Origin: Lingula anatina
Lineage: Eukaryota; Animalia; Brachiopoda
NCBI GenBank assembly: GCA_051362555.1
Contig: CM120643.1
Span: 13,676,644-13,740,643, forward strand
Length of the DNA stretch: 64,000 nt
Reading direction: 5' to 3'
Under the pieces are notes generated by a model. That model searched no databases and was not told where the DNA came from. It saw only the letters and a program-made list of their open reading frames with translations. The translations under genes were made by a program, and so were the position numbers. Of the stretch, positions 14,430 through 41,381 are shown one piece after another (position 1 is the stretch's first letter; the number at the start of each line of letters is the position of its first letter).

Positions 14430-14610
14430 GGTTTCGTTCGTCAAATCAGAGTTAAATCTGTTGTATATTTACATTGGGTTGTCACACTTTAAAAAAACTC
14501 AATGTGACAACCTGGAAACAAAAAAAAATGTAATATAATTAGTGTTTTGTATTGTGGAAGGTATTTTAAAAAGAAAGACACATTATATGGAGAATCATAC
14601 ATATACATGG

Positions 14611-19611: not shown

Positions 19612-19627
19612 GGCCCTGAAAAGGGCC
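19612..19627 (-). terminator. Histone-type mRNA 3' stem-loop downstream of the 209-aa ORF (present after all nine ORF copies)
   Basis: Reverse complement AAAAAC-GGCCCTTTTCAGGGCC-ACCCA. Confidence 0.8.
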
Positions 19628-19664
19628 GTTTTTTTCCGAGGACGTAGAAGCAGTGGCTTCTATT

Positions 19665-20294: not shown

Positions 20295-22237
20295 AGTGAG
20301 CGCGTTGTGAAAGAAATTGCTGTATTGCCAGACTTATGCCTTCCATTGAGAGTGTGCTGCTTTAAGTGTACACCCTGCTGAGGGGAGCACCGACGTTAAG
20401 GAGCTATGTGGTGTTGTGTGCTTCCCGTTGATTCTAAAAGTGTGTCATTAAGGAGCTTTGTGATTGGCTGATTGTCAAGCCATTGTCCGGTGTCTTATGT
20501 CTTGACTATTCAAGAATGTATGCACAGAATCCCCCGACAAGTGTAAATTTTGGTTTTAGTGGTTGTTTGTCAGGTTTTCTTGGTTATTACTATTGTTCCC
20601 TAGTGAGTAATAGGAACGTAGTTGTCTCGCCTACGTGGTATGTGATTATCATTATCATATGTCCGTGTATTATGGTACATAGATCATTTTGTTCCTTGTG
20701 ATCCGTAGGTTAAGGCGTGTTCCGATAAAGCAGAAAAAACCCCGTCACGCCAGTACCCAAAACACTAGCTACAAAGTAACCAGTGTTAAGGGACGGTTCC
20801 CGGTTCGGACAGTCCCACATTGCGGCCGGCCCCAGGGCCAAATAGCTTAAGTGTTGGGGGTGGTGGGCTCATGACCTAGTTAGATTCCACTTTACCAGAA
20901 TAACACGATTCAGAGCTGGGCCTCTGAGGACGTGTATTTTTACAGCGCCCCTTGCAGAGTAGACAGCGGCTCTTAGAGTGTGTTAGGCTTTTCGCCTTTA
21001 TTATGAGAACCACTTGTCTTTGATAGGAAGGTAGGTGTCTCGCCTGCCTGGTATGAGATACATAGTCATTTATATATGTAGGGTGCCCTGAAAAGGACAT
21101 TCCGTGCTGAGTAGAGAGCGACTCTTAGAGTGTGTTAGGCTTCTCGCCTTTATTATAGGGAAAGAACGTCTTTATAAGAGAGTAGGTGTCTCGCCTACTT
21201 CGTATGAGATTTATAGATACCGATCTACACTGGGGGCCCTGAAAAGGGCATTTCGTGATTGGCACAATAGAGGCGTCTCGCCTGTCGAGGGAAGGGGGAG
21301 GGTGGACTGGTTGCAGAAAGCGCTTTTCGGTCAACAAGTGACCTTCATCAGCTGCAGAGTCCGATTAATAAAAAAAAGGAAAAATTTAGGGACGTAGGGG
21401 CTGGTAAGCAAAGGTGTCTCGCCTTTGTTTAGTAAGTTTTCATCAATGGTGTCTCGCCATTGTGAATGATACGGGCCATCTCGGCTTTTAAGTATCATGC
21501 TTTGTTTAGTGATTTTCATCAATGGTGTCTCGCCATTGTGAATGATACGAGCCATCTCGGCTTTATAGTATCATGCTTGATCACAAGTGTCTCGCTTGTG
21601 TCAAAGTGGACGGTATGAATCGAGCGTGTGAATGGCTCAAGAGTCGGAGGTCGACTGAGGATTTGTTGAAATTGTGTCAAATCGAGATCGAGGCCGCGAT
21701 CTGATTGGTTGTTTCAGTTATGAGTTTTGATTGGCTGTTCTCGTGGTGTATCTTGATCCTATCTGTTTAGATGTAGTTTATTTGGTTTCATTTTTGGCAA
21801 GGTATTTTAACCTCGGATCAAATTTATTAGTATTCTTATGCTGTGCATTTGCGTGTTAACACTGAATTTTCATTTGCTAGGATGGTCTGTATAGGTTTCG
21901 GGCACCTCTTTTAATTTTGGAAGGCTTTCTCCTTGTTGCTTATAAATAAACTGAGATATCATCTCGCCTTTTATTTGCGATGTTTGTGTCTTATAAGTCG
22001 ATTGTGCCCTGTAAGTGTTTAAAATTTGGTCTAAATGAGATTATGGCATTTTGCTTTATCTCCAGAATGACTTTTCTTTTCTTTATTGATTATTAATAAG
22101 TGTGGGGAAGGCATCTCGCCTTTTATTTGCATTATTGCGCTCTATTTGAACATTCAGGTTTAGCTTTTCCTGGTAGAAATGGGTGGCCCTGAAAAGGGCC
22201 GTTTTTTTCCGAGGACGTAGAAGCAGTGGCTTCTATT

Positions 22238-22867
22238 TTACAGTGTAGTTTTCTTGGCTGAGGTTAGTCTTCGTTTCACTTTGCTGGCTAGCACGCGGCT
22301 CTTCTTCTTGTCCTTCATGGCGAGAATGAGGAGTCTCATTTGCTCCATGATCTGGTTGTTTGTGGTCGTTGAAGTAGAGGGTTGGTTTCCTGGCGTGTAC
22401 ACGCCGTGGATGTTGAAGTGCTCTTCCGCCCTGGATTCCCTCTCTTCTGCCTTTGCTAAGCTTTCCTTAGCTTTGTCTACGAAAGCTTGCGTGTGGGCCT
22501 CGATCGCGGATTTAAGCTCTGTTGCGGCCTTGTCTTGTATGTTGATCATTGCTGCCAGAAGGATGTCGTCATCAGGGCACCCCCTGAAGTCTACACGGCA
22601 TCTGACATGGTGGGCGTTGTTGCTGAGTTGTGTGAGCATGTGGTCTGCCCAGTCAGAGCAGCCTTTCAGGTAAGCTTTTGCTCTGACGACTTCGTCGTGG
22701 TAGGGGTTGCCGTTGACTCCTGGGGGGCCGGCTGTAATTGGCGCCGGTCTCTTGGGGATTCTCCCCCTGGGTGGTGCAGTGCTATGCCAGTTTTTTGATT
22801 CCATATTTCTAGGTTTTTTCCATTCCCTAGGAGATCGTTTTCCTCTGATACTTGTTTGATGATACAT
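22238..22867 (-). CDS. 209-aa element-encoded protein, copy 2
   Basis: Translation identical to copy 1. Confidence 0.7.
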   Translation of the reverse strand: MYHQTSIRGKRSPREWKKPRNMESKNWHSTAPPRGRIPKRPAPITAGPPGVNGNPYHDEVVRAKAYLKGCSDWADHMLTQLSNNAHHVRCRVDFRGCPDDDILLAAMINIQDKAATELKSAIEAHTQAFVDKAKESLAKAEERESRAEEHFNIHGVYTPGNQPSTSTTTNNQIMEQMRLLILAMKDKKKSRVLASKVKRRLTSAKKTTL

Positions 22868-24810
22868 AGTGAGCGCGTTGTGAAAGAAATTGCTGTATTG
22901 CCAGACTTATGCCTTCCATTGAGAGTGTGCTGCTTTAAGTATACACCCTGCTGAGGGGAGCACCGACGTTAAGGAGCTATGTGGTGTTGTGTGCTTCCCG
23001 TTGATTCTAAAAGTGTGTCATTAAGGAGCTTTGTGATTGGCTGATTGTCAAGCCATTGTCCGGTGTCTTATGTCTTGACTATTCAAGAATGTATGCACAG
23101 AATCCCCCGACAAGTGTAAATTTTGGTTTTAGTGGTTGTTTGTCAGGTTTTCTTGGTTATTACTATTGTTCCCTAGTGAGTAATAGGAACGTAGTTGTCT
23201 CGCCTACGTGGTATGTGATTATCATTATCATATGTCCGTGTATTATGGTACATAGATCATTTTGTTCCTTGTGATCCGTAGGTTAAGGCGTGTTCCGATA
23301 AAGCAGAAAAAACCCCGTCACGCCAGTACCCAAAACACTAGCTACAAAGTAACCAGTGTTAAGGGACGGTTCCCGGTTCGGACAGTCCCACATTGCGGCC
23401 GGCCCCAGGGCCAAATAGCTTAAGTGTTGGGGGTGGTGGGCTCATGACCTAGTTAGATTCCACTTTACCAGAATAACACGATTCAGAGCTGGGCCTCTGA
23501 GGACGTGTATTTTTACAGCGCCCCTTGCAGAGTAGACAGCGGCTCTTAGAGTGTGTTAGGCTTTTCGCCTTTATTATGAGAACCACTTGTCTTTGATAGG
23601 AAGGTAGGTGTCTCGCCTGCCTGGTATGAGATACATAGTCATTTATATATGTAGGGTGCCCTGAAAAGGACATTCCGTGCTGAGTAGAGAGCGACTCTTA
23701 GAGTGTGTTAGGCTTCTCGCCTTTATTATAGGGAAAGAACGTCTTTATAAGAGAGTAGGTGTCTCGCCTACTTCGTATGAGATTTATAGATACCGATCTA
23801 CACTGGGGGCCCTGAAAAGGGCATTTCGTGATTGGCACAATAGAGGCGTCTCGCCTGTCGAGGGAAGGGGGAGGGTGGACTGGTTGCAGAAAGCGCTTTT
23901 CGGTCAACAAGTGACCTTCATCAGCTGCAGAGTCCGATTAATAAAAAAAAGGAAAAATTTAGGGACGTAGGGGCTGGTAAGCAAAGGTGTCTCGCCTTTG
24001 TTTAGTAAGTTTTCATCAATGGTGTCTCGCCATTGTGAATGATACGGGCCATCTCGGCTTTTAAGTATCATGCTTTGTTTAGTGATTTTCATCAATGGTG
24101 TCTCGCCATTGTGAATGATACGAGCCATCTCGGCTTTATAGTATCATGCTTGATCACAAGTGTCTCGCTTGTGTCAAAGTGGACGGTATGAATCGAGCGT
24201 GTGAATGGCTCAAGAGTCGGAGGTCGACTGAGGATTTGTTGAAATTGTGTCAAATCGAGATCGAGGCCGCGATCTGATTGGTTGTTTCAGTTATGAGTTT
24301 TGATTGGCTGTTCTCGTGGTGTATCTTGATCCTATCTGTTTAGATGTAGTTTATTTGGTTTCATTTTTGGCAAGGTATTTTAACCTCGGATCAAATTTAT
24401 TAGTATTCTTATGCTGTGCATTTGCGTGTTAACACTGAATTTTCATTTGCTAGGATGGTCTGTATAGGTTTCGGGCACCTCTTTTAATTTTGGAAGGCTT
24501 TCTCCTTGTTGCTTATAAATAAACTGAGATATCATCTCGCCTTTTATTTGCGATGTTTGTGTCTTATAAGTCGATTGTGCCCTGTAAGTGTTTAAAATTT
24601 GGTCTAAATGAGATTATGGCATTTTGCTTTATCTCCAGAATGACTTTTCTTTTCTTTATTGATTATTAATAAGTGTGGGGAAGGCATCTCGCCTTTTATT
24701 TGCATTATTGCGCTCTATTTGAACATTCAGGTTTAGCTTTTCCTGGTAGAAATGGGTGGCCCTGAAAAGGGCCGTTTTTTTCCGAGGACGTAGAAGCAGT
24801 GGCTTCTATT

Positions 24811-25440
24811 TTACAGTGTAGTTTTCTTGGCTGAGGTTAGTCTTCGTTTCACTTTGCTGGCTAGCACGCGGCTCTTCTTCTTGTCCTTCATGGCGAGAAT
24901 GAGGAGTCTCATTTGCTCCATGATCTGGTTGTTTGTGGTCGTTGAAGTAGAGGGTTGGTTTCCTGGCGTGTACACGCCGTGGATGTTGAAGTGCTCTTCC
25001 GCCCTGGATTCCCTCTCTTCTGCCTTTGCTAAGCTTTCCTTAGCTTTGTCTACGAAAGCTTGCGTGTGGGCCTCGATCGCGGATTTAAGCTCTGTTGCGG
25101 CCTTGTCTTGTATGTTGATCATTGCTGCCAGAAGGATGTCGTCATCAGGGCACCCCCTGAAGTCTACACGGCATCTGACATGGTGGGCGTTGTTGCTGAG
25201 TTGTGTGAGCATGTGGTCTGCCCAGTCAGAGCAGCCTTTCAGGTAAGCTTTTGCTCTGACGACTTCGTCGTGGTAGGGGTTGCCGTTGACTCCTGGGGGG
25301 CCGGCTGTAATTGGCGCCGGTCTCTTGGGGATTCTCCCCCTGGGTGGTGCAGTGCTATGCCAGTTTTTTGATTCCATATTTCTAGGTTTTTTCCATTCCC
25401 TAGGAGATCGTTTTCCTCTGATACTTGTTTGATGATACAT
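24811..25440 (-). CDS. 209-aa element-encoded protein, copy 3
   Basis: Translation identical to copy 1. Confidence 0.7.
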   Translation of the reverse strand: MYHQTSIRGKRSPREWKKPRNMESKNWHSTAPPRGRIPKRPAPITAGPPGVNGNPYHDEVVRAKAYLKGCSDWADHMLTQLSNNAHHVRCRVDFRGCPDDDILLAAMINIQDKAATELKSAIEAHTQAFVDKAKESLAKAEERESRAEEHFNIHGVYTPGNQPSTSTTTNNQIMEQMRLLILAMKDKKKSRVLASKVKRRLTSAKKTTL

Positions 25441-27383
25441 AGTGAGCGCGTTGTGAAAGAAATTGCTGTATTGCCAGACTTATGCCTTCCATTGAGAGTG
25501 TGCTGCTTTAAGTATACACCCTGCTGAGGGGAGCACCGACGTTAAGGAGCTATGTGGTGTTGTGTGCTTCCCGTTGATTCTAAAAGTGTGTCATTAAGGA
25601 GCTTTGTGATTGGCTGATTGTCAAGCCATTGTCCGGTGTCTTATGTCTTGACTATTCAAGAATGTATGCACAGAATCCCCCGACAAGTGTAAATTTTGGT
25701 TTTAGTGGTTGTTTGTCAGGTTTTCTTGGTTATTACTATTGTTCCCTAGTGAGTAATAGGAACGTAGTTGTCTCGCCTACGTGGTATGTGATTATCATTA
25801 TCATATGTCCGTGTATTATGGTACATAGATCATTTTGTTCCTTGTGATCCGTAGGTTAAGGCGTGTTCCGATAAAGCAGAAAAAACCCCGTCACGCCAGT
25901 ACCCAAAACACTAGCTACAAAGTAACCAGTGTTAAGGGACGGTTCCCGGTTCGGACAGTCCCACATTGCGGCCGGCCCCAGGGCCAAATAGCTTAAGTGT
26001 TGGGGGTGGTGGGCTCATGACCTAGTTAGATTCCACTTTACCAGAATAACACGATTCAGAGCTGGGCCTCTGAGGACGTGTATTTTTACAGCGCCCCTTG
26101 CAGAGTAGACAGCGGCTCTTAGAGTGTGTTAGGCTTTTCGCCTTTATTATGAGAACCACTTGTCTTTGATAGGAAGGTAGGTGTCTCGCCTGCCTGGTAT
26201 GAGATACATAGTCATTTATATATGTAGGGTGCCCTGAAAAGGACATTCCGTGCTGAGTAGAGAGCGACTCTTAGAGTGTGTTAGGCTTCTCGCCTTTATT
26301 ATAGGGAAAGAACGTCTTTATAAGAGAGTAGGTGTCTCGCCTACTTCGTATGAGATTTATAGATACCGATCTACACTGGGGGCCCTGAAAAGGGCATTTC
26401 GTGATTGGCACAATAGAGGCGTCTCGCCTGTCGAGGGAAGGGGGAGGGTGGACTGGTTGCAGAAAGCGCTTTTCGGTCAACAAGTGACCTTCATCAGCTG
26501 CAGAGTCCGATTAATAAGAAAAAGGAAAAATTTAGGGACGTAGGGGCTGGTAAGCAAAGGTGTCTCGCCTTTGTTTAGTAAGTTTTCATCAATGGTGTCT
26601 CGCCATTGTGAATGATACGGGCCATCTCGGCTTTTAAGTATCATGCTTTGTTTAGTGATTTTCATCAATGGTGTCTCGCCATTGTGAATGATACGAGCCA
26701 TCTCGGCTTTATAGTATCATGCTTGATCACAAGTGTCTCGCTTGTGTCAAAGTGGACGGTATGAATCGAGCGTGTGAATGGCTCAAGAGTCGGAGGTCGA
26801 CTGAGGATTTGTTGAAATTGTGTCAAATCGAGATCGAGGCCGCGATCTGATTGGTTGTTTCAGTTATGAGTTTTGATTGGCTGTTCTCGTGGTGTATCTT
26901 GATCCTATCTGTTTAGATGTAGTTTATTTGGTTTCATTTTTGGCAAGGTATTTTAACCTCGGATCAAATTTATTAGTATTCTTATGCTGTGCATTTGCGT
27001 GTTAACACTGAATTTTCATTTGCTAGGATGGTCTGTATAGGTTTCGGGCACCTCTTTTAATTTTGGAAGGCTTTCTCCTTGTTGCTTATAAATAAACTGA
27101 GATATCATCTCGCCTTTTATTTGCGATGTTTGTGTCTTATAAGTCGATTGTGCCCTGTAAGTGTTTAAAATTTGGTCTAAATGAGATTATGGCATTTTGC
27201 TTTATCTCCAGAATGACTTTTCTTTTCTTTATTGATTATTAATAAGTGTGGGGAAGGCATCTCGCCTTTTATTTGCATTATTGCGCTCTATTTGAACATT
27301 CAGGTTTAGCTTTTCCTGGTAGAAATGGGTGGCCCTGAAAAGGGCCGTTTTTTTCCGAGGACGTAGAAGCAGTGGCTTCTATT

Positions 27384-28013
27384 TTACAGTGTAGTTTTCT
27401 TGGCTGAGGTTAGTCTTCGTTTCACTTTGCTGGCTAGCACGCGGCTCTTCTTCTTGTCCTTCATGGCGAGAATGAGGAGTCTCATTTGCTCCATGATCTG
27501 GTTGTTTGTGGTCGTTGAAGTAGAGGGTTGGTTTCCTGGCGTGTACACGCCGTGGATGTTGAAGTGCTCTTCCGCCCTGGATTCCCTCTCTTCTGCCTTT
27601 GCTAAGCTTTCCTTAGCTTTGTCTACGAAAGCTTGCGTGTGGGCCTCGATCGCGGATTTAAGCTCTGTTGCGGCCTTGTCTTGTATGTTGATCATTGCTG
27701 CCAGAAGGATGTCGTCATCAGGGCACCCCCTGAAGTCTACACGGCATCTGACATGGTGGGCGTTGTTGCTGAGTTGTGTGAGCATGTGGTCTGCCCAGTC
27801 AGAGCAGCCTTTCAGGTAAGCTTTTGCTCTGACGACTTCGTCGTGGTAGGGGTTGCCGTTGACTCCTGGGGGGCCGGCTGTAATTGGCGCCGGTCTCTTG
27901 GGGATTCTCCCCCTGGGTGGTGCAGTGCTATGCCAGTTTTTTGATTCCATATTTCTAGGTTTTTTCCATTCCCTAGGAGATCGTTTTCCTCTGATACTTG
28001 TTTGATGATACAT
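27384..28013 (-). CDS. 209-aa element-encoded protein, copy 4
   Basis: Translation identical to copy 1. Confidence 0.7.
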   Translation of the reverse strand: MYHQTSIRGKRSPREWKKPRNMESKNWHSTAPPRGRIPKRPAPITAGPPGVNGNPYHDEVVRAKAYLKGCSDWADHMLTQLSNNAHHVRCRVDFRGCPDDDILLAAMINIQDKAATELKSAIEAHTQAFVDKAKESLAKAEERESRAEEHFNIHGVYTPGNQPSTSTTTNNQIMEQMRLLILAMKDKKKSRVLASKVKRRLTSAKKTTL

Positions 28014-30289
28014 AGTGAGCGCGTTGTGAAAGAAATTGCTGTATTGCCAGACTTATGCCTTCCATTGAGAGTGTGCTGCTTTAAGTATACACCCTGCTGA
28101 GGGGAGCACCGACGTTAAGGAGCTATGTGGTGTTGTGTGCTTCCCGTTGATTCTAAAAGTGTGTCATTAAGGAGCTTTGTGATTGGCTGATTGTCAAGCC
28201 ATTGTCCGGTGTCTTATGTCTTGACTATTCAAGAATGTATGCACAGAATCCCCCGACAAGTGTAAATTTTGGTTTTAGTGGTTGTTTGTCAGGTTTTCTT
28301 GGTTATTACTATTGTTCCCTAGTGAGTAATAGGAACGTAGTTGTCTCGCCTACGTGGTATGTGATTATCATTATCATATGTCCGTGTATTATGGTACATA
28401 GATCATTTTGTTCCTTGTGATCCGTAGGTTAAGGCGTGTTCCGATAAAGCAGAAAAAACCCCGTCACGCCAGTACCCAAAACACTAGCTACAAAGTAACC
28501 AGTGTTAAGGGACGGTTCCCGGTTCGGACAGTCCCACATTGCGGCCGGCCCCAGGGCCAAATAGCTTAAGTGTTGGGGGTGGTGGGCTCATGACCTAGTT
28601 AGATTCCACTTTACCAGAATAACACGATTCAGAGCTGGGCCTCTGAGGACGTGTATTTTTACAGCGCCCCTTGCAGAGTAGACAGCGGCTCTTAGAGTGT
28701 GTTAGGCTTTTCGCCTTTATTATGAGAACCACTTGTCTTTGATAGGAAGGTAGGTGTCTCGCCTGCCTGGTATGAGATACATAGTCATTTATATATGTAG
28801 GGTGCCCTGAAAAGGACATTCCGTGCTGAGTAGAGAGCGACTCTTAGAGTGTGTTAGGCTTCTCGCCTTTATTATAGGGAAAGAACGTCTTTATAAGAGA
28901 GTAGGTGTCTCGCCTACTTCGTATGAGATTTATAGATACCGATCTACACTGGGGGCCCTGAAAAGGGCATTTCGTGATTGGCACAATAGAGGCGTCTCGC
29001 CTGTCGAGGGAAGGGGGAGGGTGGACTGGTTGCAGAAAGCGCTATTCGGTCAACAAGTGACCTTCATCAGCTGCAGAGTCCGATTAATAAAAAAAAGGAA
29101 AAATTTAGGGACGTAGGGGCTGGTAAGCAAAGGTGTCTCGCCTTTGTTTAGTAAGTTTTCATCAATGGTGTCTCGCCATTGTGAATGATACGGGCCATCT
29201 CGGCTTTTAAGTATCATGCTTTGTTTAGTGATTTTCATCAATGGTGTCTCGCCATTGTGAATGATACGAGCCATCTCGGCTTTATAGTATCATGCTTGAT
29301 CACAAGTGTCTCGCTTGTGTCAAAGTGGACGGTATGAATCGAGCGTGTGAATGGCTCAAGAGTCGGAGGTCGACTGAGGATTTGTTGAAATTGTGTCAAA
29401 TCGAGATCGAGGCCGCGATCTGATTGGTTGTTTCAGTTATGAGTTTTGATTGGCTGTTCTCGTGGTGTATCTTGATCCTATCTGTTTAGATGTAGTTTAT
29501 TTGGTTTCATTTTTGGCAAGGTATTTTAACCTCGGATCAAATTTATTAGTATTCTTATGCTGTGCATTTGCGTGTTAACACTGAATTTTCATTTGCTAGG
29601 ATGGTCTGTATAGGTTTCGGGCACCTCTTTTAATTTTGGAAGGCTTTCTCCTTGTTGCTTATAAATAAACTGAGATATCATCTCGCCTTTTATTTGCGAT
29701 GTTTGTGTCCCTCAAGTGTTGGGGGTGGTGGGCTCATGACCTAGTTAGATTCCACTTTACCAGAATAACACGATTCAGAGCTGGGCCTCTGAGGACGTGT
29801 ATTTTTACAGCGCCCCTTGCAGAGTAGACAGCGGCTCTTAGAGTGTGTTAGGCTTTTCGCCTTTATTATGAGAACCACTTGTCTTTGATAGGAAGGTAGG
29901 TGTCTCGCCTGCCTGGTATGAGATACATAGTCATTTATATATGTAGGGTGCCCTGAAAAGGACATTCCGTGCTGAGTAGAGAGCGACTCTTATAGTGTGT
30001 TAGGCTTCTCGCCTTTATTATAGGGAAAGAACGTCTTTATAAGAGAGTAGGTGTCTCGCCTACTTCGTATGAGATTTATAGATACCGATCTACACTGGGG
30101 GCCCTGAAAAGGGCATTTCGTGATTGGCACAATAGAGGCGTCTCGCCTGTCGAGGGAAGGGGGAGGGTGGACTGGTTGCAGAAAGCGCTTTTCGGTCAAC
30201 CCTCAGCAGGGTGTATACTTAAAGCAGCACACTCTCAATGGAAGGCATAAGTCTGGCAATACAGCAATTTCTTTCACAACGCGCTCACT

Positions 30290-30919
30290 ATGTATCATCA
30301 AACAAGTATCAGAGGAAAACGATCTCCTAGGGAATGGAAAAAACCTAGAAATATGGAATCAAAAAACTGGCATAGCACTGCACCACCCAGGGGGAGAATC
30401 CCCAAGAGACCGGCGCCAATTACAGCCGGCCCCCCAGGAGTCAACGGCAACCCCTACCACGACGAAGTCGTCAGAGCAAAAGCTTACCTGAAAGGCTGCT
30501 CTGACTGGGCAGACCACATGCTCACACAACTCAGCAACAACGCCCACCATGTCAGATGCCGTGTAGACTTCAGGGGGTGCCCTGATGACGACATCCTTCT
30601 GGCAGCAATGATCAACATACAAGACAAGGCCGCAACAGAGCTTAAATCCGCGATCGAGGCCCACACGCAAGCTTTCGTAGACAAAGCTAAGGAAAGCTTA
30701 GCAAAGGCAGAAGAGAGGGAATCCAGGGCGGAAGAGCACTTCAACATCCACGGCGTGTACACGCCAGGAAACCAACCCTCTACTTCAACGACCACAAACA
30801 ACCAGATCATGGAGCAAATGAGACTCCTCATTCTCGCCATGAAGGACAAGAAGAAGAGCCGCGTGCTAGCCAGCAAAGTGAAACGAAGACTAACCTCAGC
30901 CAAGAAAACTACACTGTAA
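30290..30919 (+). CDS. 209-aa element-encoded protein, copy 5 (in an inverted partial unit lacking the upstream CCAAT box)
   Basis: Translation identical to copy 1. Confidence 0.65.
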   Translation: MYHQTSIRGKRSPREWKKPRNMESKNWHSTAPPRGRIPKRPAPITAGPPGVNGNPYHDEVVRAKAYLKGCSDWADHMLTQLSNNAHHVRCRVDFRGCPDDDILLAAMINIQDKAATELKSAIEAHTQAFVDKAKESLAKAEERESRAEEHFNIHGVYTPGNQPSTSTTTNNQIMEQMRLLILAMKDKKKSRVLASKVKRRLTSAKKTTL

Positions 30920-30956
30920 AATAGAAGCCACTGCTTCTACGTCCTCGGAAAAAAAC

Positions 30957-30995
30957 GGCCCTTTTCAGGGCCACCCATTTCTACCAGGAAAAGCT
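30957..30995 (+). terminator. Histone-type 3' stem-loop plus candidate purine-rich histone downstream element (also at 38846 and 41419)
   Basis: GGCCCTTTTCAGGGCC at 30957-30972, ACCCA at 30973-30977, CAGGAAAAGCT at 30985-30995. Confidence 0.8.
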
Positions 30996-31794
30996 AAACC
31001 TGAATGTTCAAATAGAGCGCAATAATGCAAATAAAAGGCGAGATGCCTTCCCCACACTTATTAATAATCAATAAAGAAAAGAAAAGTCATTCTGGAGATA
31101 AAGCAAAATGCCATAATCTCATTTAGACCAAATTTTAAACACTTACAGGGCACAATCGACTTATAAGACACAAACATCGCAAATAAAAGGCGAGATGATA
31201 TCTCAGTTTATTTATAAGCAACAAGGAGAAAGCCTTCCAAAATTAAAAGAGGTGCCCGAAACCTATACAGACCATCCTAGCAAATGAAAATTCAGTGTTA
31301 ACACGCAAATGCACAGCATAAGAATACTAATAAATTTGATCCGAGGTTAAAATACCTTGCCAAAAATGAAACCAAATAAACTACATCTAAACAGATAGGA
31401 TCAAGATACACCACGAGAACAGCCAATCAAAACTCATAACTGAAACAACCAATCAGATCGCGGCCTCGATCTCGATTTGACACAATTTCAACAAATCCTC
31501 AGTCGACCTCCGACTCTTGAGCCATTCACACGCTCGATTCATACCGTCCACTTTGACACAAGCGAGACACTTGTGATCAAGCATGATACTATAAAGCCGA
31601 GATGGCTCGTATCATTCACAATGGCGAGACACCATTGATGAAAATCACTAAACAAAGCATGATACTTAAAAGCCGAGATGGCCCGTATCATTCACAATGG
31701 CGAGACACCATTGATGAAAACTTACTAAACAAAGGCGAGACACCTTTGCTTACCAGCCCCTACGTCCCTAAATTTTTCCTTTTTTTTATTAATC

Positions 31795-31853
31795 GGACTC
31801 TGCAGCTGATGAAGGTCACTTGTTGACCGAAAAGCGCTTTCTGCAACCAGTCC
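31795..31853 (+). ncRNA. Minimal type I hammerhead ribozyme (further plus-strand copies at 39684-39742, 42257-42315, 43041-43099)
   Basis: Stem I TGCAG(31801-05)/CTGCA(31841-45) extended by GGACT/AGTCC; core CTGATGA 31806-12; stem II GGTCA/TGACC; GAAA; palindromic stem III AAGCGCTT; predicted cut after 31840. Confidence 0.88.
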
Positions 31854-33261
31854 ACCCTCCCCCTTCCCTTATAAGTGTTGGGGGTGGTGGGCTCATGACC
31901 TAGTTAGATTCCACTTTACCAGAATAACACGATTCAGAGCTGGGCCTCTGAGGACGTGTATTTTTACAGCGCCCCTTGCAGAGTAGACAGCGGCTCTTAG
32001 AGTGTGTTAGGCTTTTCGCCTTTATTATGAGAACCACTTGTCTTTGATAGGAAGGTAGGTGTCTCGCCTGCCTGGTATGAGATACATAGTCATTTATATA
32101 TGTAGGGTGCCCTGAAAAGGACATTCCGTGCTGAGTAGAGAGCGACTCTTAGAGTGTGTTAGGCTTCTCGCCTTTATTATAGGGAAAGAACGTCTTTATA
32201 AGAGAGTAGGTGTCTCGCCTACTTCGTATGAGATTTATAGATACCGATCTACACTGGGGGCCCTGAAAAGGGCATTTCGTGATTGGCACAATAGAGGCGT
32301 CTCGCCTGTCGAGGGAAGGGGGAGGGTGGACTGGTTGCAGAAAGCGCTTTTCGGTCAACAAGTGACCTTCATCAGCTGCAGAGTCCGATTAATAAAAAAA
32401 AGGAAAAATTTAGGGACGTAGGGGCTGGTAAGCAAAGGTGTCTCGCCTTTGTTTAGTAAGTTTTCATCAATGGTGTCTCGCCATTGTGAATGATACGGGC
32501 CATCTCGGCTTTTAAGTATCATGCTTTGTTTAGTGATTTTCATCAATGGTGTCTCGCCATTGTGAATGATACGAGCCATCTCGGCTTTATAGTATCATGC
32601 TTGATCACAAGTGTCTCGCTTGTGTCAAAGTGGACGGTATGAATCGAGCGTGTGAATGGCTCAAGAGTCGGAGGTCGACTGAGGATTTGTTGAAATTGTG
32701 TCAAATCGAGATCGAGGCCGCGATCTGATTGGTTGTTTCAGTTATGAGTTTTGATTGGCTGTTCTCGTGGTGTATCTTGATCCTATCTGTTTAGATGTAG
32801 TTTATTTGGTTTCATTTTTGGCAAGGTATTTTAACCTCGGATCAAATTTATTAGTATTCTTATGCTGTGCATTTGCGTGTTAACACTGAATTTTCATTTG
32901 CTAGGATGGTCTGTATAGGTTTCGGGCACCTCTTTTAATTTTGGAAGGCTTTCTCCTTGTTGCTTATAAATAAACTGAGATATCATCTCGCCTTTTATTT
33001 GCGATGTTTGTGTCTTATAAGTCGATTGTGCCCTGTAAGTGTTTAAAATTTGGTCTAAATGAGATTATGGCATTTTGCTTTATCTCCAGAATGACTTTTC
33101 TTTTCTTTATTGATTATTAATAAGTGTGGGGAAGGCATCTCGCCTTTTATTTGCATTATTGCGCTCTATTTGAACATTCAGGTTTAGCTTTTCCTGGTAG
33201 AAATGGGTGGCCCTGAAAAGGGCCGTTTTTTTCCGAGGACGTAGAAGCAGTGGCTTCTATT

Positions 33262-33891
33262 TTACAGTGTAGTTTTCTTGGCTGAGGTTAGTCTTCGTTT
33301 CACTTTGCTGGCTAGCACGCGGCTCTTCTTCTTGTCCTTCATGGCGAGAATGAGGAGTCTCATTTGCTCCATGATCTGGTTGTTTGTGGTCGTTGAAGTA
33401 GAGGGTTGGTTTCCTGGCGTGTACACGCCGTGGATGTTGAAGTGCTCTTCCGCCCTGGATTCCCTCTCTTCTGCCTTTGCTAAGCTTTCCTTAGCTTTGT
33501 CTACGAAAGCTTGCGTGTGGGCCTCGATCGCGGATTTAAGCTCTGTTGCGGCCTTGTCTTGTATGTTGATCATTGCTGCCAGAAGGATGTCGTCATCAGG
33601 GCACCCCCTGAAGTCTACACGGCATCTGACATGGTGGGCGTTGTTGCTGAGTTGTGTGAGCATGTGGTCTGCCCAGTCAGAGCAGCCTTTCAGGTAAGCT
33701 TTTGCTCTGACGACTTCGTCGTGGTAGGGGTTGCCGTTGACTCCTGGGGGGCCGGCTGTAATTGGCGCCGGTCTCTTGGGGATTCTCCCCCTGGGTGGTG
33801 CAGTGCTATGCCAGTTTTTTGATTCCATATTTCTAGGTTTTTTCCATTCCCTAGGAGATCGTTTTCCTCTGATACTTGTTTGATGATACAT
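33262..33891 (-). CDS. 209-aa element-encoded protein, copy 6
   Basis: Translation identical to copy 1. Confidence 0.7.
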   Translation of the reverse strand: MYHQTSIRGKRSPREWKKPRNMESKNWHSTAPPRGRIPKRPAPITAGPPGVNGNPYHDEVVRAKAYLKGCSDWADHMLTQLSNNAHHVRCRVDFRGCPDDDILLAAMINIQDKAATELKSAIEAHTQAFVDKAKESLAKAEERESRAEEHFNIHGVYTPGNQPSTSTTTNNQIMEQMRLLILAMKDKKKSRVLASKVKRRLTSAKKTTL

Positions 33892-35834
33892 AGTGAGCGC
33901 GTTGTGAAAGAAATTGCTGTATTGCCAGACTTATGCCTTCCATTGAGAGTGTGCTGCTTTAAGTATACACCCTGCTGAGGGGAGCACCGACGTTAAGGAG
34001 CTATGTGGTGTTGTGTGCTTCCCGTTGATTCTAAAAGTGTGTCATTAAGGAGCTTTGTGATTGGCTGATTGTCAAGCCATTGTCCGGTGTCTTATGTCTT
34101 GACTATTCAAGAATGTATGCACAGAATCCCCCGACAAGTGTAAATTTTGGTTTTAGTGGTTGTTTGTCAGGTTTTCTTGGTTATTACTATTGTTCCCTAG
34201 TGAGTAATAGGAACGTAGTTGTCTCGCCTACGTGGTATGTGATTATCATTATCATATGTCCGTGTATTATGGTACATAGATCATTTTGTTCCTTGTGATC
34301 CGTAGGTTAAGGCGTGTTCCGATAAAGCAGAAAAAACCCCGTCACGCCAGTACCCAAAACACTAGCTACAAAGTAACCAGTGTTAAGGGACGGTTCCCGG
34401 TTCGGACAGTCCCACATTGCGGCCGGCCCCAGGGCCAAATAGCTTAAGTGTTGGGGGTGGTGGGCTCATGACCTAGTTAGATTCCACTTTACCAGAATAA
34501 CACGATTCAGAGCTGGGCCTCTGAGGACGTGTATTTTTACAGCGCCCCTTGCAGAGTAGACAGCGGCTCTTAGAGTGTGTTAGGCTTTTCGCCTTTATTA
34601 TGAGAACCACTTGTCTTTGATAGGAAGGTAGGTGTCTCGCCTGCCTGGTATGAGATACATAGTCATTTATATATGTAGGGTGCCCTGAAAAGGACATTCC
34701 GTGCTGAGTAGAGAGCGACTCTTAGAGTGTGTTAGGCTTCTCGCCTTTATTATAGGGAAAGAACGTCTTTATAAGAGAGTAGGTGTCTCGCCTACTTCGT
34801 ATGAGATTTATAGATACCGATCTACACTGGGGGCCCTGAAAAGGGCATTTCGTGATTGGCACAATAGAGGCGTCTCGCCTGTCGAGGGAAGGGGGAGGGT
34901 GGACTGGTTGCAGAAAGCGCTTTTCGGTCAACAAGTGACCTTCATCAGCTGCAGAGTCCGATTAATAAAAAAAAGGAAAAATTTAGGGACGTAGGGGCTG
35001 GTAAGCAAAGGTGTCTCGCCTTTGTTTAGTAAGTTTTCATCAATGGTGTCTCGCCATTGTGAATGATACGGGCCATCTCGGCTTTTAAGTATCATGCTTT
35101 GTTTAGTGATTTTCATCAATGGTGTCTCGCCATTGTGAATGATACGAGCCATCTCGGCTTTATAGTATCATGCTTGATCACAAGTGTCTCGCTTGTGTCA
35201 AAGTGGACGGTATGAATCGAGCGTGTGAATGGCTCAAGAGTCGGAGGTCGACTGAGGATTTGTTGAAATTGTGTCAAATCGAGATCGAGGCCGCGATCTG
35301 ATTGGTTGTTTCAGTTATGAGTTTTGATTGGCTGTTCTCGTGGTGTATCTTGATCCTATCTGTTTAGATGTAGTTTATTTGGTTTCATTTTTGGCAAGGT
35401 ATTTTAACCTCGGATCAAATTTATTAGTATTCTTATGCTGTGCATTTGCGTGTTAACACTGAATTTTCATTTGCTAGGATGGTCTGTATAGGTTTCGGGC
35501 ACCTCTTTTAATTTTGGAAGGCTTTCTCCTTGTTGCTTATAAATAAACTGAGATATCATCTCGCCTTTTATTTGCGATGTTTGTGTCTTATAAGTCGATT
35601 GTGCCCTGTAAGTGTTTAAAATTTGGTCTAAATGAGATTATGGCATTTTGCTTTATCTCCAGAATGACTTTTCTTTTCTTTATTGATTATTAATAAGTGT
35701 GGGGAAGGCATCTCGCCTTTTATTTGCATTATTGCGCTCTATTTGAACATTCAGGTTTAGCTTTTCCTGGTAGAAATGGGTGGCCCTGAAAAGGGCCGTT
35801 TTTTTCCGAGGACGTAGAAGCAGTGGCTTCTATT

Positions 35835-36464
35835 TTACAGTGTAGTTTTCTTGGCTGAGGTTAGTCTTCGTTTCACTTTGCTGGCTAGCACGCGGCTCTT
35901 CTTCTTGTCCTTCATGGCGAGAATGAGGAGTCTCATTTGCTCCATGATCTGGTTGTTTGTGGTCGTTGAAGTAGAGGGTTGGTTTCCTGGCGTGTACACG
36001 CCGTGGATGTTGAAGTGCTCTTCCGCCCTGGATTCCCTCTCTTCTGCCTTTGCTAAGCTTTCCTTAGCTTTGTCTACGAAAGCTTGCGTGTGGGCCTCGA
36101 TCGCGGATTTAAGCTCTGTTGCGGCCTTGTCTTGTATGTTGATCATTGCTGCCAGAAGGATGTCGTCATCAGGGCACCCCCTGAAGTCTACACGGCATCT
36201 GACATGGTGGGCGTTGTTGCTGAGTTGTGTGAGCATGTGGTCTGCCCAGTCAGAGCAGCCTTTCAGGTAAGCTTTTGCTCTGACGACTTCGTCGTGGTAG
36301 GGGTTGCCGTTGACTCCTGGGGGGCCGGCTGTAATTGGCGCCGGTCTCTTGGGGATTCTCCCCCTGGGTGGTGCAGTGCTATGCCAGTTTTTTGATTCCA
36401 TATTTCTAGGTTTTTTCCATTCCCTAGGAGATCGTTTTCCTCTGATACTTGTTTGATGATACAT
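35835..36464 (-). CDS. 209-aa element-encoded protein, copy 7
   Basis: Translation identical to copy 1. Confidence 0.7.
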   Translation of the reverse strand: MYHQTSIRGKRSPREWKKPRNMESKNWHSTAPPRGRIPKRPAPITAGPPGVNGNPYHDEVVRAKAYLKGCSDWADHMLTQLSNNAHHVRCRVDFRGCPDDDILLAAMINIQDKAATELKSAIEAHTQAFVDKAKESLAKAEERESRAEEHFNIHGVYTPGNQPSTSTTTNNQIMEQMRLLILAMKDKKKSRVLASKVKRRLTSAKKTTL

Positions 36465-38003
36465 AGTGAGCGCGTTGTGAAAGAAATTGCTGTATTGCCA
36501 GACTTATGCCTTCCATTGAGAGTGTGCTGCTTTAAGTATACACCCTGCTGAGGGGAGCACCGACGTTAAGGAGCTATGTGGTGTTGTGTGCTTCCCGTTG
36601 ATTCTAAAAGTGTGTCATTAAGGAGCTTTGTGATTGGCTGATTGTCAAGCCATTGTCCGGTGTCTTATGTCTTGACTATTCAAGAATGTATGCACAGAAT
36701 CCCCCGACAAGTGTAAATTTTGGTTTTAGTGGTTGTTTGTCAGGTTTTCTTGGTTATTACTATTGTTCCCTAGTGAGTAATAGGAACGTAGTTGTCTCGC
36801 CTACGTGGTATGTGATTATCATTATCATATGTCCGTGTATTATGGTACATAGATCATTTTGTTCCTTGTGATCCGTAGGTTAAGGCGTGTTCCGATAAAG
36901 CAGAAAAAACCCCGTCACGCCAGTACCCAAAACACTAGCTACAAAGTAACCAGTGTTAAGGGACGGTTCCCGGTTCGGACAGTCCCACATTGCGGCCGGC
37001 CCCAGGGCCAAATAGCTTAAGTGTTGGGGGTGGTGGGCTCATGACCTAGTTAGATTCCACTTTACCAGAATAACACGATTCAGAGCTGGGCCTCTGAGGA
37101 CGTGTATTTTTACAGCGCCCCTTGCAGAGTAGACAGCGGCTCTTAGAGTGTGTTAGGCTTTTCGCCTTTATTATGAGAACCACTTGTCTTTGATAGGAAG
37201 GTAGGTGTCTCGCCTGCCTGGTATGAGATACATAGTCATTTATATATGTAGGGTGCCCTGAAAAGGACATTCCGTGCTGAGTAGAGAGCGACTCTTAGAG
37301 TGTGTTAGGCTTCTCGCCTTTATTATAGGGAAAGAACGTCTTTATAAGAGAGTAGGTGTCTCGCAGCACGGAATGTCCTTTTCAGGGCACCCTACATATA
37401 TAAATGACTATGTATCTCATACCAGGCAGGCGAGACACCTACCTTCCTATCAAAGACAAGTGGTTCTCATAATAAAGGCGAAAAGCCTAACACACTCTAA
37501 GAGCCGCTGTCTACTCTGCAAGGGGCGCTGTAAAAATACACGTCCTCAGAGGCCCAGCTCTGAATCGTGTTATTCTGGTAAAGTGGAATCTAACTAGGTC
37601 ATGAGCCCACCACCCCCAACACTTAAGCTATTTGGCCCTGGGGCCGGCCGCAATGTGGGACTGTCCGAACCGGGAACCGTCCCTTAACACTGGTTACTTT
37701 GTAGCTAGTGTTTTGGGTACTGGCGTGACGGGGTTTTTTCTGCTTTATCGGAACACGCCTTAACCTACGGATCACAAGGAACAAAATGATCTATGTACCA
37801 TAATACACGGACATATGATAATGATAATCACATACCACGTAGGCGAGACAACTACGTTCCTATTACTCACTAGGGAACAATAGTAATAACCAAGAAAACC
37901 TGACAAACAACCACTAAAACCAAAATTTACACTTGTCGGGGGATTCTGTGCATACATTCTTGAATAGTCAAGACATAAGACACCGGACAATGGCTTGACA
38001 ATC

Positions 38004-38112
38004 AGCCAATCACAAAGCTCCTTAATGACACACTTTTAGAATCAACGGGAAGCACACAACACCACATAGCTCCTTAACGTCGGTGCTCCCCTCAGCAGGG
38101 TGTATACTTAAA
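38004..38112 (+). promoter_or_regulatory. Candidate Pol II promoter of the element ORF (CCAAT box plus TATA-like motif)
   Basis: AGCCAATCA at 38004-38012, AGCTCCTTAA twice, TATACTTAAA at 38103-38112, about 70 nt before the ATG at 38179; motif match only. Confidence 0.4.
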
Positions 38113-38178
38113 GCAGCACACTCTCAATGGAAGGCATAAGTCTGGCAATACAGCAATTTCTTTCACAACGCGCTCACT

Positions 38179-38808
38179 ATGTATCATCAAACAAGTATCA
38201 GAGGAAAACGATCTCCTAGGGAATGGAAAAAACCTAGAAATATGGAATCAAAAAACTGGCATAGCACTGCACCACCCAGGGGGAGAATCCCCAAGAGACC
38301 GGCGCCAATTACAGCCGGCCCCCCAGGAGTCAACGGCAACCCCTACCACGACGAAGTCGTCAGAGCAAAAGCTTACCTGAAAGGCTGCTCTGACTGGGCA
38401 GACCACATGCTCACACAACTCAGCAACAACGCCCACCATGTCAGATGCCGTGTAGACTTCAGGGGGTGCCCTGATGACGACATCCTTCTGGCAGCAATGA
38501 TCAACATACAAGACAAGGCCGCAACAGAGCTTAAATCCGCGATCGAGGCCCACACGCAAGCTTTCGTAGACAAAGCTAAGGAAAGCTTAGCAAAGGCAGA
38601 AGAGAGGGAATCCAGGGCGGAAGAGCACTTCAACATCCACGGCGTGTACACGCCAGGAAACCAACCCTCTACTTCAACGACCACAAACAACCAGATCATG
38701 GAGCAAATGAGACTCCTCATTCTCGCCATGAAGGACAAGAAGAAGAGCCGCGTGCTAGCCAGCAAAGTGAAACGAAGACTAACCTCAGCCAAGAAAACTA
38801 CACTGTAA
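38179..38808 (+). CDS. 209-aa element-encoded protein, copy 8
   Basis: Translation identical to copy 1. Confidence 0.7.
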   Translation: MYHQTSIRGKRSPREWKKPRNMESKNWHSTAPPRGRIPKRPAPITAGPPGVNGNPYHDEVVRAKAYLKGCSDWADHMLTQLSNNAHHVRCRVDFRGCPDDDILLAAMINIQDKAATELKSAIEAHTQAFVDKAKESLAKAEERESRAEEHFNIHGVYTPGNQPSTSTTTNNQIMEQMRLLILAMKDKKKSRVLASKVKRRLTSAKKTTL

Positions 38809-40751
38809 AATAGAAGCCACTGCTTCTACGTCCTCGGAAAAAAACGGCCCTTTTCAGGGCCACCCATTTCTACCAGGAAAAGCTAAACCTGAATGTTCAA
38901 ATAGAGCGCAATAATGCAAATAAAAGGCGAGATGCCTTCCCCACACTTATTAATAATCAATAAAGAAAAGAAAAGTCATTCTGGAGATAAAGCAAAATGC
39001 CATAATCTCATTTAGACCAAATTTTAAACACTTACAGGGCACAATCGACTTATAAGACACAAACATCGCAAATAAAAGGCGAGATGATATCTCAGTTTAT
39101 TTATAAGCAACAAGGAGAAAGCCTTCCAAAATTAAAAGAGGTGCCCGAAACCTATACAGACCATCCTAGCAAATGAAAATTCAGTGTTAACACGCAAATG
39201 CACAGCATAAGAATACTAATAAATTTGATCCGAGGTTAAAATACCTTGCCAAAAATGAAACCAAATAAACTACATCTAAACAGATAGGATCAAGATACAC
39301 CACGAGAACAGCCAATCAAAACTCATAACTGAAACAACCAATCAGATCGCGGCCTCGATCTCGATTTGACACAATTTCAACAAATCCTCAGTCGACCTCC
39401 GACTCTTGAGCCATTCACACGCTCGATTCATACCGTCCACTTTGACACAAGCGAGACACTTGTGATCAAGCATGATACTATAAAGCCGAGATGGCTCGTA
39501 TCATTCACAATGGCGAGACACCATTGATGAAAATCACTAAACAAAGCATGATACTTAAAAGCCGAGATGGCCCGTATCATTCACAATGGCGAGACACCAT
39601 TGATGAAAACTTACTAAACAAAGGCGAGACACCTTTGCTTACCAGCCCCTACGTCCCTAAATTTTTCCTTTTTTTTATTAATCGGACTCTGCAGCTGATG
39701 AAGGTCACTTGTTGACCGAAAAGCGCTTTCTGCAACCAGTCCACCCTCCCCCTTCCCTCGACAGGCGAGACGCCTCTATTGTGCCAATCACGAAATGCCC
39801 TTTTCAGGGCCCCCAGTGTAGATCGGTATCTATAAATCTCATACGAAGTAGGCGAGACACCTACTCTCTTATAAAGACGTTCTTTCCCTATAATAAAGGC
39901 GAGAAGCCTAACACACTCTAAGAGTCGCTCTCTACTCAGCACGGAATGTCCTTTTCAGGGCACCCTACATATATAAATGACTATGTATCTCATACCAGGC
40001 AGGCGAGACACCTACCTTCCTATCAAAGACAAGTGGTTCTCATAATAAAGGCGAAAAGCCTAACACACTCTAAGAGCCGCTGTCTACTCTGCAAGGGGCG
40101 CTGTAAAAATACACGTCCTCAGAGGCCCAGCTCTGAATCGTGTTATTCTGGTAAAGTGGAATCTAACTAGGTCATGAGCCCACCACCCCCAACACTTAAG
40201 CTATTTGGCCCTGGGGCCGGCCGCAATGTGGGACTGTCCGAACCGGGAACCGTCCCTTAACACTGGTTACTTTGTAGCTAGTGTTTTGGGTACTGGCGTG
40301 ACGGGGTTTTTTCTGCTTTATCGGAACACGCCTTAACCTACGGATCACAAGGAACAAAATGATCTATGTACCATAATACACGGACATATGATAATGATAA
40401 TCACATACCACGTAGGCGAGACAACTACGTTCCTATTACTCACTAGGGAACAATAGTAATAACCAAGAAAACCTGACAAACAACCACTAAAACCAAAATT
40501 TACACTTGTCGGGGGATTCTGTGCATACATTCTTGAATAGTCAAGACATAAGACACCGGACAATGGCTTGACAATCAGCCAATCACAAAGCTCCTTAATG
40601 ACACACTTTTAGAATCAACGGGAAGCACACAACACCACATAGCTCCTTAACGTCGGTGCTCCCCTCAGCAGGGTGTATACTTAAAGCAGCACACTCTCAA
40701 TGGAAGGCATAAGTCTGGCAATACAGCAATTTCTTTCACAACGCGCTCACT

Positions 40752-41381
40752 ATGTATCATCAAACAAGTATCAGAGGAAAACGATCTCCTAGGGAATGGA
40801 AAAAACCTAGAAATATGGAATCAAAAAACTGGCATAGCACTGCACCACCCAGGGGGAGAATCCCCAAGAGACCGGCGCCAATTACAGCCGGCCCCCCAGG
40901 AGTCAACGGCAACCCCTACCACGACGAAGTCGTCAGAGCAAAAGCTTACCTGAAAGGCTGCTCTGACTGGGCAGACCACATGCTCACACAACTCAGCAAC
41001 AACGCCCACCATGTCAGATGCCGTGTAGACTTCAGGGGGTGCCCTGATGACGACATCCTTCTGGCAGCAATGATCAACATACAAGACAAGGCCGCAACAG
41101 AGCTTAAATCCGCGATCGAGGCCCACACGCAAGCTTTCGTAGACAAAGCTAAGGAAAGCTTAGCAAAGGCAGAAGAGAGGGAATCCAGGGCGGAAGAGCA
41201 CTTCAACATCCACGGCGTGTACACGCCAGGAAACCAACCCTCTACTTCAACGACCACAAACAACCAGATCATGGAGCAAATGAGACTCCTCATTCTCGCC
41301 ATGAAGGACAAGAAGAAGAGCCGCGTGCTAGCCAGCAAAGTGAAACGAAGACTAACCTCAGCCAAGAAAACTACACTGTAA
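40752..41381 (+). CDS. 209-aa element-encoded protein, copy 9
   Basis: Translation identical to copy 1. Confidence 0.7.
   Translation: MYHQTSIRGKRSPREWKKPRNMESKNWHSTAPPRGRIPKRPAPITAGPPGVNGNPYHDEVVRAKAYLKGCSDWADHMLTQLSNNAHHVRCRVDFRGCPDDDILLAAMINIQDKAATELKSAIEAHTQAFVDKAKESLAKAEERESRAEEHFNIHGVYTPGNQPSTSTTTNNQIMEQMRLLILAMKDKKKSRVLASKVKRRLTSAKKTTL

Follow-up and report, generated by a model that had tools for sequence, protein, structure and literature searches.

A 64,000 nt stretch of contig CM120643.1 of the Lingula anatina assembly GCA_051362555.1, referred to below as the window, carries an array of repeats in which a hammerhead ribozyme motif recurs. The locus raises the questions of what kind of element carries this motif, and of whether the motif cuts RNA in the life of that element. 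We favour, at a probability of roughly 55 %, a protein-coding, non-autonomous element, mobilized by a Penelope-like element (PLE), whose RNA would be cut by hammerhead dimers, circularized and copied by rolling reverse transcription, in effect a giant retrozyme. The coordinates of the features discussed are collected in Table 1.

Table 1. Features of the insertion and its flanks (unit positions are counted from the predicted cut)
Feature	Position	Strand	Remarks
Whole insertion	17811..43552	.	Seven arms of the 2,573 bp unit, ~10.0 units; unit parse of array
Arm 1	17811..18277	-	467 nt; unit 466 to 1/2573
Arm 2	18278..29709	-	11,432 nt, 4.44 units; unit 466 to 1900; continuous across five hammerhead cut sites
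Arm 3	ends at 30200	-	Unit 468 to 2555
Arm 4		+	Unit 934 to 29
Arm 5		-	Unit 469 to 123; 2.13 units
Arm 6		+	Unit 209 to 466; 2.10 units
Arm 7	42771..43552	+	782 nt; unit 2258 to 466
Fixed AC-rich end site	40195..40198	+	Unit 466-469; used at 17811, 18278, 29714, 31872, 42768, 43552
Hammerhead, intact	31795..31853	+	BLAST and descriptor
Hammerhead, intact	18731..18789	-	BLAST
Hammerheads, intact	21304-21362, 23877-23935, 26450-26508, 32328-32386, 34901-34959	-	BLAST
Hammerheads, intact	39684-39742, 42257-42315, 43041-43099	+	BLAST
Hammerhead, full-length	29023..29081	-	A15.1 to U at 29044; core and palindrome broken; predicted inactive
Hammerhead, partial	30169..30200	-	3' 32 nt, where arm 3 ends
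209 aa intronless ATG ORF	30290..30919	+	Hammerhead strand; nine identical copies in array
Histone 3' UTR stem-loop (Rfam RF00032)	30952..30996	+	Hairpin 30957-30972; 38 bits, gathering score 34
Pair of additional hairpins resembling the histone stem-loop	39796-39811, 39947-39962 (39796..39962)	+	67 and 218 nt past the predicted cut
Cluster of CGAGA-type sites	31553..31752	+	6 of 14 sites; just upstream of the hammerhead
Remaining CGAGA-type sites	unit 36, 123, 170, 274, 322, 687, 1771, 1923		
CCAAT box pair	31423..31453	+	Putative start (31524) lies ~70-100 nt downstream; sequence only
Ion-channel-like intronless frames, one family	5914-7821 (-), 12597-14468 (-), 47730-49568 (-), 52903-54783 (+)		612-635 codons

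The hammerhead motif and its copies

The 59-mer at 31795-31853 is a type I hammerhead of the PLE type. Its C3-A9 segment lies at 31806-31812 and is followed by one extra unpaired A, then by G12-A15.1 and U17. Helix II consists of 5 bp with a 5 nt loop, helix I of 5 bp, and a distal 5 bp stem (GGACU/AGUCC) lies beyond a C/ACC internal loop. Helix III is the palindrome AAGCGCUU, which spans 15.1 to 16.1. These features bear out the complete core, 5 bp stem II, extended 5 bp stem I and palindromic stem III that had been described from the letters of this segment. The self-complementary stem III proved longer than described: the palindrome reaches 10 nt, and mispairing could involve A14 and U17, both of which lie within it. 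The predicted cut falls between 31840 and 31841, so that the 3' product begins at 31841; cleavage shifted by one base, to follow UUC, was rejected, as it would break helix I and the symmetry of the palindrome. The UUU triplet is a slow hammerhead cleavage triplet, and our literature search found no cleavage rate for it.

BLAST placed 11 full-length copies and one partial copy of the hammerhead in the window. Ten of the 11 full-length copies are identical and intact, with the complete core (C3-A9, G12-A15.1, U16.1-H17) and helices I and II. The original prediction had counted 11 complete copies; 11 are full-length, but only ten are intact, the other one carrying A15.1U. It had also placed one hammerhead per unit in tandem. 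The copies are indeed borne by the unit, but the array consists of seven arms with inversions rather than a plain tandem, and behind the copy at 31795-31853 only 29 nt of unit follow before an inversion. That description left out the unpaired A, the copy with A15.1U, the putative fixed start of reverse transcription and the two-ended inverted structure, as well as the ORF, the histone stem-loops and the CGAGA hairpins, which set this unit apart.

A scan with Rfam gave ten matches at E<=1 with no hammerhead family amongst them, and the motif was therefore tested with a descriptor made of the hammerhead core plus stems, against a null set of 5,000 dinucleotide-shuffled units. The descriptor matched ten times in the window, each time at an intact copy and in a single polarity of the element, and not once in 38 kb of flank. 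It matched one of the 5,000 shuffled units, and none of the 5,000 with 5+5 bp stems and the palindrome. The hammerhead motif exceeds chance expectation. Other CUGAUGA...GAAA strings in the flanks were rejected as hammerheads, having failed the stem tests. Unrelated tandem repeats with periods of 337, 160 and 58 occupy 58826-63118, and the 160 bp repeat contains such strings, which likewise failed the hammerhead stem test.

PLE hammerheads are characterized by a nucleotide between 9 and 10.1, a G10.1-C11.1 pair and palindromic positions 15.2-16.2 (PMC4209133). Both the unpaired nucleotide between 9 and 10.1 (insertion = 1) and the G10.1-C11.1 pair are present here. The motif resembles the hammerheads in the pLTRs of metazoan PLEs (Cervera and de la Pena 2014, PMC4209133) in its core, its 9/10.1 base, its G10.1-C11.1 pair, its 5 bp helix I, its palindrome, its predicted dimer action and its position in a terminal repeat. 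It differs from them in a helix II of 5 bp, where theirs have 6-8, and in the presence of one arm end at the cut site. We are very nearly certain that this is a real PLE-type hammerhead motif. The ribozyme taken alone is ordinary, with traits as in the published PLE hammerheads.

The fold energy of the monomer is unremarkable (z -1.24). Two copies together fold at -44.9 kcal/mol, compared with 2 x -16.6 for single copies; the active double-hammerhead fold lies at -43.1 kcal/mol and the active monomer at -11.8, 4.8 kcal/mol above the monomer minimum. The hammerhead is predicted to work as a dimer, and the earlier suggestion of a minimal PLE-type hammerhead acting in pairs gains support from the PLE traits and from this predicted two-copy fold. 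An A14-U17 pair is formed in the two-copy minimum fold, and may possibly act as a brake on the dimer.

Anatomy of the array

Unit numbering starts at the predicted cut, with window position 39730 as unit position 1 of the 2,573 bp unit. The 25.7 kb array contains four private substitutions, none of them common to different arms, and represents one young insertion. The AC-rich site at unit 466-469 accounts for 6 of the 14 arm ends, both host junctions included. These ends point outward at both junctions, in inverted orientation and in AT-rich DNA, and we interpret unit 466-469 as a putative fixed reverse-transcription start. Restarts at this site bear 0-4 extra bases. The extra bases behind arm 2 (29710-29714; 4 extra bases) are the first bases of arm 4 (30201-30205), a match that hints that both ends may have been in play in a single event. 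The same match looks as though the polymerase attempted one template jump twice. Arm 5 ends at 37364, precisely where the loop of a GCGAGA hairpin (unit 123) begins.

The array combines a fixed 3' end with arms that are partly tandem and partly inverted, as PLE insertions do (PMC8557442, PMC3846280). Directly at the host junctions no target-site duplication of 2-24 bp was found, and with all starts within 4 nt there is no 30-40 bp tail; both features are optional in PLEs. No reverse transcriptase frame was found in the unit; measured between stops, its longest frame has 222 codons, with no reverse transcriptase motif and no Pfam match. Anolis Poseidon (Frangieh et al. 2024, PMC11167929) shares with this element a fixed AC-rich internal start downstream of the hammerhead, the absence of primer homology, AT-rich targets and priming of both strands, and its fixed internal start has been demonstrated in vitro (PMC11167929). 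The element studied here differs in having one start (466-469) some 466 nt behind the cut, in showing no 30-40 bp tail, in being non-autonomous and in having a seam at the cut site. We consider it highly probable that the element was mobilized by a PLE.

The insertion lies amongst ion-channel-like frames (Table 1). Pfam Ion_trans matches two of the four above the cut-off and one below it, and is absent from the fourth; the frames may be TRPV-like. A duplication of ~5 kb (2309-7803 / 9278-14423, 85-90 % identity) covers two of the channel genes. A 150 bp look-alike (17612-17761 / 44055-44212; 67 %, E 5e-6), at distances of 50 bp and 500 bp from the two junctions, is probably an older host repeat. 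A weak resemblance to bacterial RNase P class B, reported by Rfam at 9357-9561 on the minus strand, was dismissed as chance (21 bits, cut-off 97, E 0.12).

A seam at the predicted cut site

The predicted scissile bond is where arm 1 terminates, at unit 1 or, with one shared A included, at 2573. This bond had been predicted from structure, and the 5' end expected there, CUGCAACC (31841), coincides with the end of arm 1, a fit at the DNA level. Microhomology between the seam and the restart site amounts to 0-1 nt, and was rejected as the cause of the seam, as the better homology of 3-4 nt available nearby at 2565-2566 was left unused. A polymerase stalled at the folded motif would be expected to stop at its 3' edge (unit 13) and not at the scissile bond.

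The arms have eight free ends, six of them within 525 nt around the ribozyme. One of the eight lies in the 2 nt cut window, which has a probability of 0.006 if ends are uniform and 0.023 given their clustering, with n=1. Copying stopped at the predicted cut site once in 13 encounters; the site was crossed the other 12 times, over up to 4.4 units in one arm. Arm 1 is likely a run-off copy of cleaved RNA. Arm 7 is likely the full pLTR copied from uncleaved RNA, beginning at the putative transcription start at unit 2257. The end of arm 7 (2258) is read as a transcription start because a CCAAT pair lies 70-100 nt above it and because RNA run X7 shows another copy whose likeness sets in at the same bases.

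Published PLE hammerheads cleave poorly in vitro (PMC4209133). The Anolis Poseidon hammerhead is dispensable for insertion in vitro, its cleavage is protein-assisted, and no RNA-seq ends were found at its site (PMC11167929); amongst Xenopus retrozyme dimers, eight of nine were without cleavage (bioRxiv 10.64898/2026.07.22.740005). The distance of 2.57 kb between the partner hammerheads studied here, and the ability of U17 to pair with A14, were both counted against a dimer cleavage model. Reading from the DNA, we nevertheless think it rather probable that the hammerhead cuts in vivo at some rate.

RNA reads from the family

Four RNA runs of the same species (of nine, none of them indexed as carrying the element) yielded 22, 4, 94 and 46 reads from 9.5, 8.4, 12.4 and 11.1 million records. 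The libraries are mostly poly(A), with a depth of ~15 or less, and circles, abundant in retrozymes, would escape such libraries. The main table of joints was empty, and no pile-up of RNA ends at the cut site was seen amongst the 166 reads, which, coming from four mostly poly(A) runs, are a weak test. A total of 43 of the 166 reads match at 99 % or more (34 of 94 in run X1), and most reads come from diverged copies.

Run X7 contains reads of diverged family copies. Their likeness to the array begins at 39682/39684 (three and five reads) and ends at 39745 (four reads), limits that are the edges of the 59 nt hammerhead motif. None of the 40 variant positions listed, out of 66 in all, falls inside 39684-39742, and 39649-39668, 39680 and 39748 do vary. 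This conserved island points to selection on the hammerhead motif, as far as these few reads can indicate. The loose ends of the X7 reads were considered as tandem hammerheads and rejected, as diverged upstream sequence fits equally. Six X7 reads come from another copy whose likeness starts at the same bases as arm 7 (unit 2257/2258). In two X7 reads, 39643 is followed, after 15 intervening letters, by a return to 39443; a related copy whose hairpin cluster holds a short tandem unit of ~215 nt is suggested by this jump.

Run X4 contributed six reads in which an AT-rich sequence is followed by the same nine start letters and an inverted piece, assuming that the letters adjoin the junction. These reads suggest that the same reverse-transcription start may have been used at another locus. 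Reads of the pLTR occur in all four runs, and reads of the ORF in X1 only. ORF coverage in X1 has a depth of 0.3-4.8, runs in one direction and is zero past the stem-loop bin.

An orphan ORF followed by a histone-type stem-loop

The unit carries a 209 aa ORF on the hammerhead strand. An ORF of this length arose in 2 of 1,000 shuffles. The protein has a basic, proline-rich N-terminus and a helical hairpin; in a two-sequence model (pLDDT 64.8) the basic N-terminus is disordered and the helical hairpin is long. Its only homologue is P0001 (E 6.2e-7, 32 %), an unnamed protein on a single 1,420 nt contig, found amongst 1.84 billion representatives; P0001 as a query found only itself amongst 302. 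The ORF protein has no Pfam match, one weak match amongst PHROGs (E 0.051), none amongst PDB sequences and no usable match in the Atlas, and its model has no Foldseek match in the PDB at E<=0.001 (best 1.1). Protein searches returned none amongst 92 candidates and none amongst 7,992 longer candidates, the latter being weak evidence. Metagenome and viral contigs held neither relatives of the ORF nor the exact hammerhead motif. A looser pattern of the motif found 25 viral loci, of which none folds as a hammerhead or resembles the unit. A 118 aa antisense ORF without Pfam matches was taken as a shadow.

The histone 3' UTR stem-loop RF00032 occurs in nine copies in the array, 37 nt past the stop codon of the ORF. 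The purine-rich CAGGAAAAGCT (30985-30995) follows 13 nt behind the stem and matches 4/5 bases of the complement of the U7 UCUUU box, the U7 compared being the conserved box and not that of the host. The two extra hairpins sit in a duplicated 151 nt module, and Rfam reports neither at E<=1. Histone mRNA 3' ends (RF00032; PMC4604434, PMC5054213) share the 6 bp stem, the UUUC loop, the A-rich 5' flank, the ACCCA 3' flank and the position near the stop of an intronless gene. The comparison also shows differences, as the ORF here is no histone and the downstream element reaches only 4/5 to the U7 box complement. The signals suggest that the ORF mRNA may be handled by the histone pathway, for which we would put the chance at slightly under even.

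CGAGA-type sites form a further class of signal. Thirteen of the 14 lie in hairpin loops whose stems differ, and none of 1,000 arm permutations folds as well, although several sites are internal duplicates and hence not all are independent. GGCGAGA was observed ten times against 0.1 expected, and not at all in the flanks. On the sense strand there is no CGAGA-type site within the ORF.

Upstream of the ORF, unit 850 has a CCAAT and unit 945 a TATA-like stretch, and we interpret the CCAAT and TATA-like boxes of the unit as putative promoters. The part of the pLTR behind the hammerhead (39784-39972, unit 55-243) contains one CCAAT and three TATA-like boxes. Each unit has seven AATAAA signals. At unit 163, 315, 1763 and 1915, AATAAA stands directly before GGCGA(G/A)A.

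A model for mobilization and its rivals

In the scheme that we favour, transcription would start at the putative start at unit 2257 and run through two hammerheads. Pairing by way of the palindrome, these two successive hammerheads would cut the transcript slowly, perhaps with the assistance of a protein. The released 2,573 nt piece would then be ligated to a circle by a host ligase of the RtcB type, as has been proposed for retrozymes (PMC7229834, PMC7761336). Since helix III is impossible for a hammerhead alone, a circle with a single hammerhead would be stable. A PLE enzyme borrowed in trans would prime from both ends of a DNA break, start at unit 466-469, travel round the circle up to 4.4 times and, whenever it stopped, begin anew at 466-469. 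The CGAGA hairpins could be binding sites for the PLE enzyme or for the ORF protein, and the cargo protein would be made from a separate, histone-style, non-polyadenylated mRNA. If processed, the stem-loop inside the unit would break a transcript that runs from hammerhead to hammerhead. A bolder version envisages a protein-coding circular-RNA retroparasite, with dimer cutting in vivo, a circle, rolling copying by a borrowed Penelope enzyme, and its own RNA-binding protein expressed through the histone (SLBP/U7) pathway at S phase or during oogenesis and bound to the CGAGA hairpins; we regard this full combination as doubtful.

We hold the odds of a circular template to be even. Circles and reverse transcription of more than one unit have already been proposed for PLEs (PMC4209133), and the homogeneity of the units is equally compatible with a young linear donor array. 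In the main rival account, the PLE enzyme would instead have copied a long, mostly uncleaved linear transcript of an existing tandem array, the hammerhead cutting rarely or acting as a structural signal of the pLTR. The 12 of 13 passes across the cut site speak for such a template, as do the resemblance of arm 7 to a run-off from uncleaved pLTR RNA and the absence of RNA ends at the cut site amongst the 166 reads. Against it, the transcript would need to extend over 11.4 kb, past ~30 AATAAA signals and four histone stem-loops, and the exact end of arm 1 is left to chance or to rare cleavage. Because every unit holds seven AATAAA signals and a histone stem-loop, linear read-through over 11 kb would be harder than one pass plus circularization, and we judge a linear template unlikely. 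With either template, the pLTR could have captured a histone-style host gene that was moved in trans, leaving the ORF and its stem-loop as passengers. In Adineta, pLTRs alone moved a host NRPS gene (PMC3846280); the ORF here is intronless, with CCAAT and TATA-like boxes and a 3' signal of its own, and the detection of ORF reads in one of four runs, compared with pLTR reads in all four, implies that most family copies may be without the ORF. Two near-identical stem-loops within the pLTR, however, and CGAGA hairpins on both sides of the ORF (unit 687, 1771) suggest long co-evolution, and the protein belongs to no host-like family (no Pfam match, one unnamed homologue). Gene capture is a possibility that we take seriously, whilst leaning against it.

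Explanations that do without a PLE fare far worse. Near-identical repeats are prone to assembly error, and the array could in principle be assembly inflation, or the product of satellite expansion or break repair at the DNA level, with the ribozyme a dead passenger. Such processes would not be expected to place six ends at one 4 nt site, with 0-4 extra bases and in both orientations; moreover, 34 of 94 X1 reads match at >=99 % and another locus has the same start letters, which makes this account very improbable. An endogenized delta-like or viroid-like circular RNA replicon, consisting of a ribozyme and one protein, would explain the unit-length multimers, the single ribozyme and the basic 209 aa protein. 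Delta-like agents, however, have ribozymes in both polarities, a rod-like fold and delta antigen; the hammerhead descriptor finds the ribozyme here in one polarity only, 53 % of bases are paired in a circular fold, and Pfam gives no match. The lack of PHROG, PDB or Foldseek matches and of relatives in viral and metagenome contigs also tells against such a replicon, as do the Pol II promoter-like boxes, the histone stem-loop and the PLE-type ends, and we give it the slightest chance of all.

Relation to known elements and significance

Amongst PLEs, the closest published hammerhead-bearing elements (PMC4209133) have an ORF for RT-GIY-YIG between their repeats, where the repeat here flanks a 209 aa orphan ORF; autonomous EN+ PLEs likewise carry an RT and GIY-YIG ORF, and this element has neither. 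Terminon/Athena elements (EN-) are telomeric (PMC8557442), with telomeric repeats beside the hammerhead, whereas this insertion is internal, amongst ion-channel genes; no telomeric array was found in the window. The captured genes of Adineta vaga Penelope elements (PMC3846280) and the non-autonomous MRC1-type elements of Chlamys (PMC8557442) offer a parallel in cargo that lies between pLTRs and is moved in trans, and in multicopy insertions that are head-to-tail and inverted. The present element differs in an orphan cargo with a histone-type 3' end, in ~9 repeats per insertion and in lacking a target-site duplication.

Animal non-LTR retrozymes (PMC7229834, PMC7761336; Li, Clavereau and Pollet 2026, bioRxiv 10.64898/2026.07.22.740005) resemble the element in their tandem units, each bearing a single type I hammerhead, in having no reverse transcriptase and in being likely PLE-mobilized. 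The unit here is 2,573 bp, compared with 51-972 bp for retrozymes in a survey with a period limit of 1,000 bp (bioRxiv 10.64898/2026.07.22.740005). Retrozymes are described as non-coding and promoter-less, with a canonical hammerhead, whereas this element is protein-coding, with promoter-like boxes, histone stem-loops and a PLE-type hammerhead. The element would work like a retrozyme, yet falls outside their definition by size (<1 kb) and by non-coding nature. Our searches of the open-access literature found no description of a PLE derivative that joins a hammerhead to an orphan ORF and a histone-type end.

One arm stops at the scissile bond with no microhomology to account for it, next to arms of up to 4.4 units, and is a possible genomic record of ribozyme cleavage. 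Cleavage and rolling-circle copying are thereby directly testable on a very young element. Histone mRNAs have been described as the sole cellular mRNAs with such a stem-loop end, and retrozymes as small and non-coding; an element that unites a hammerhead with an orphan ORF and histone-type ends would stretch both descriptions.
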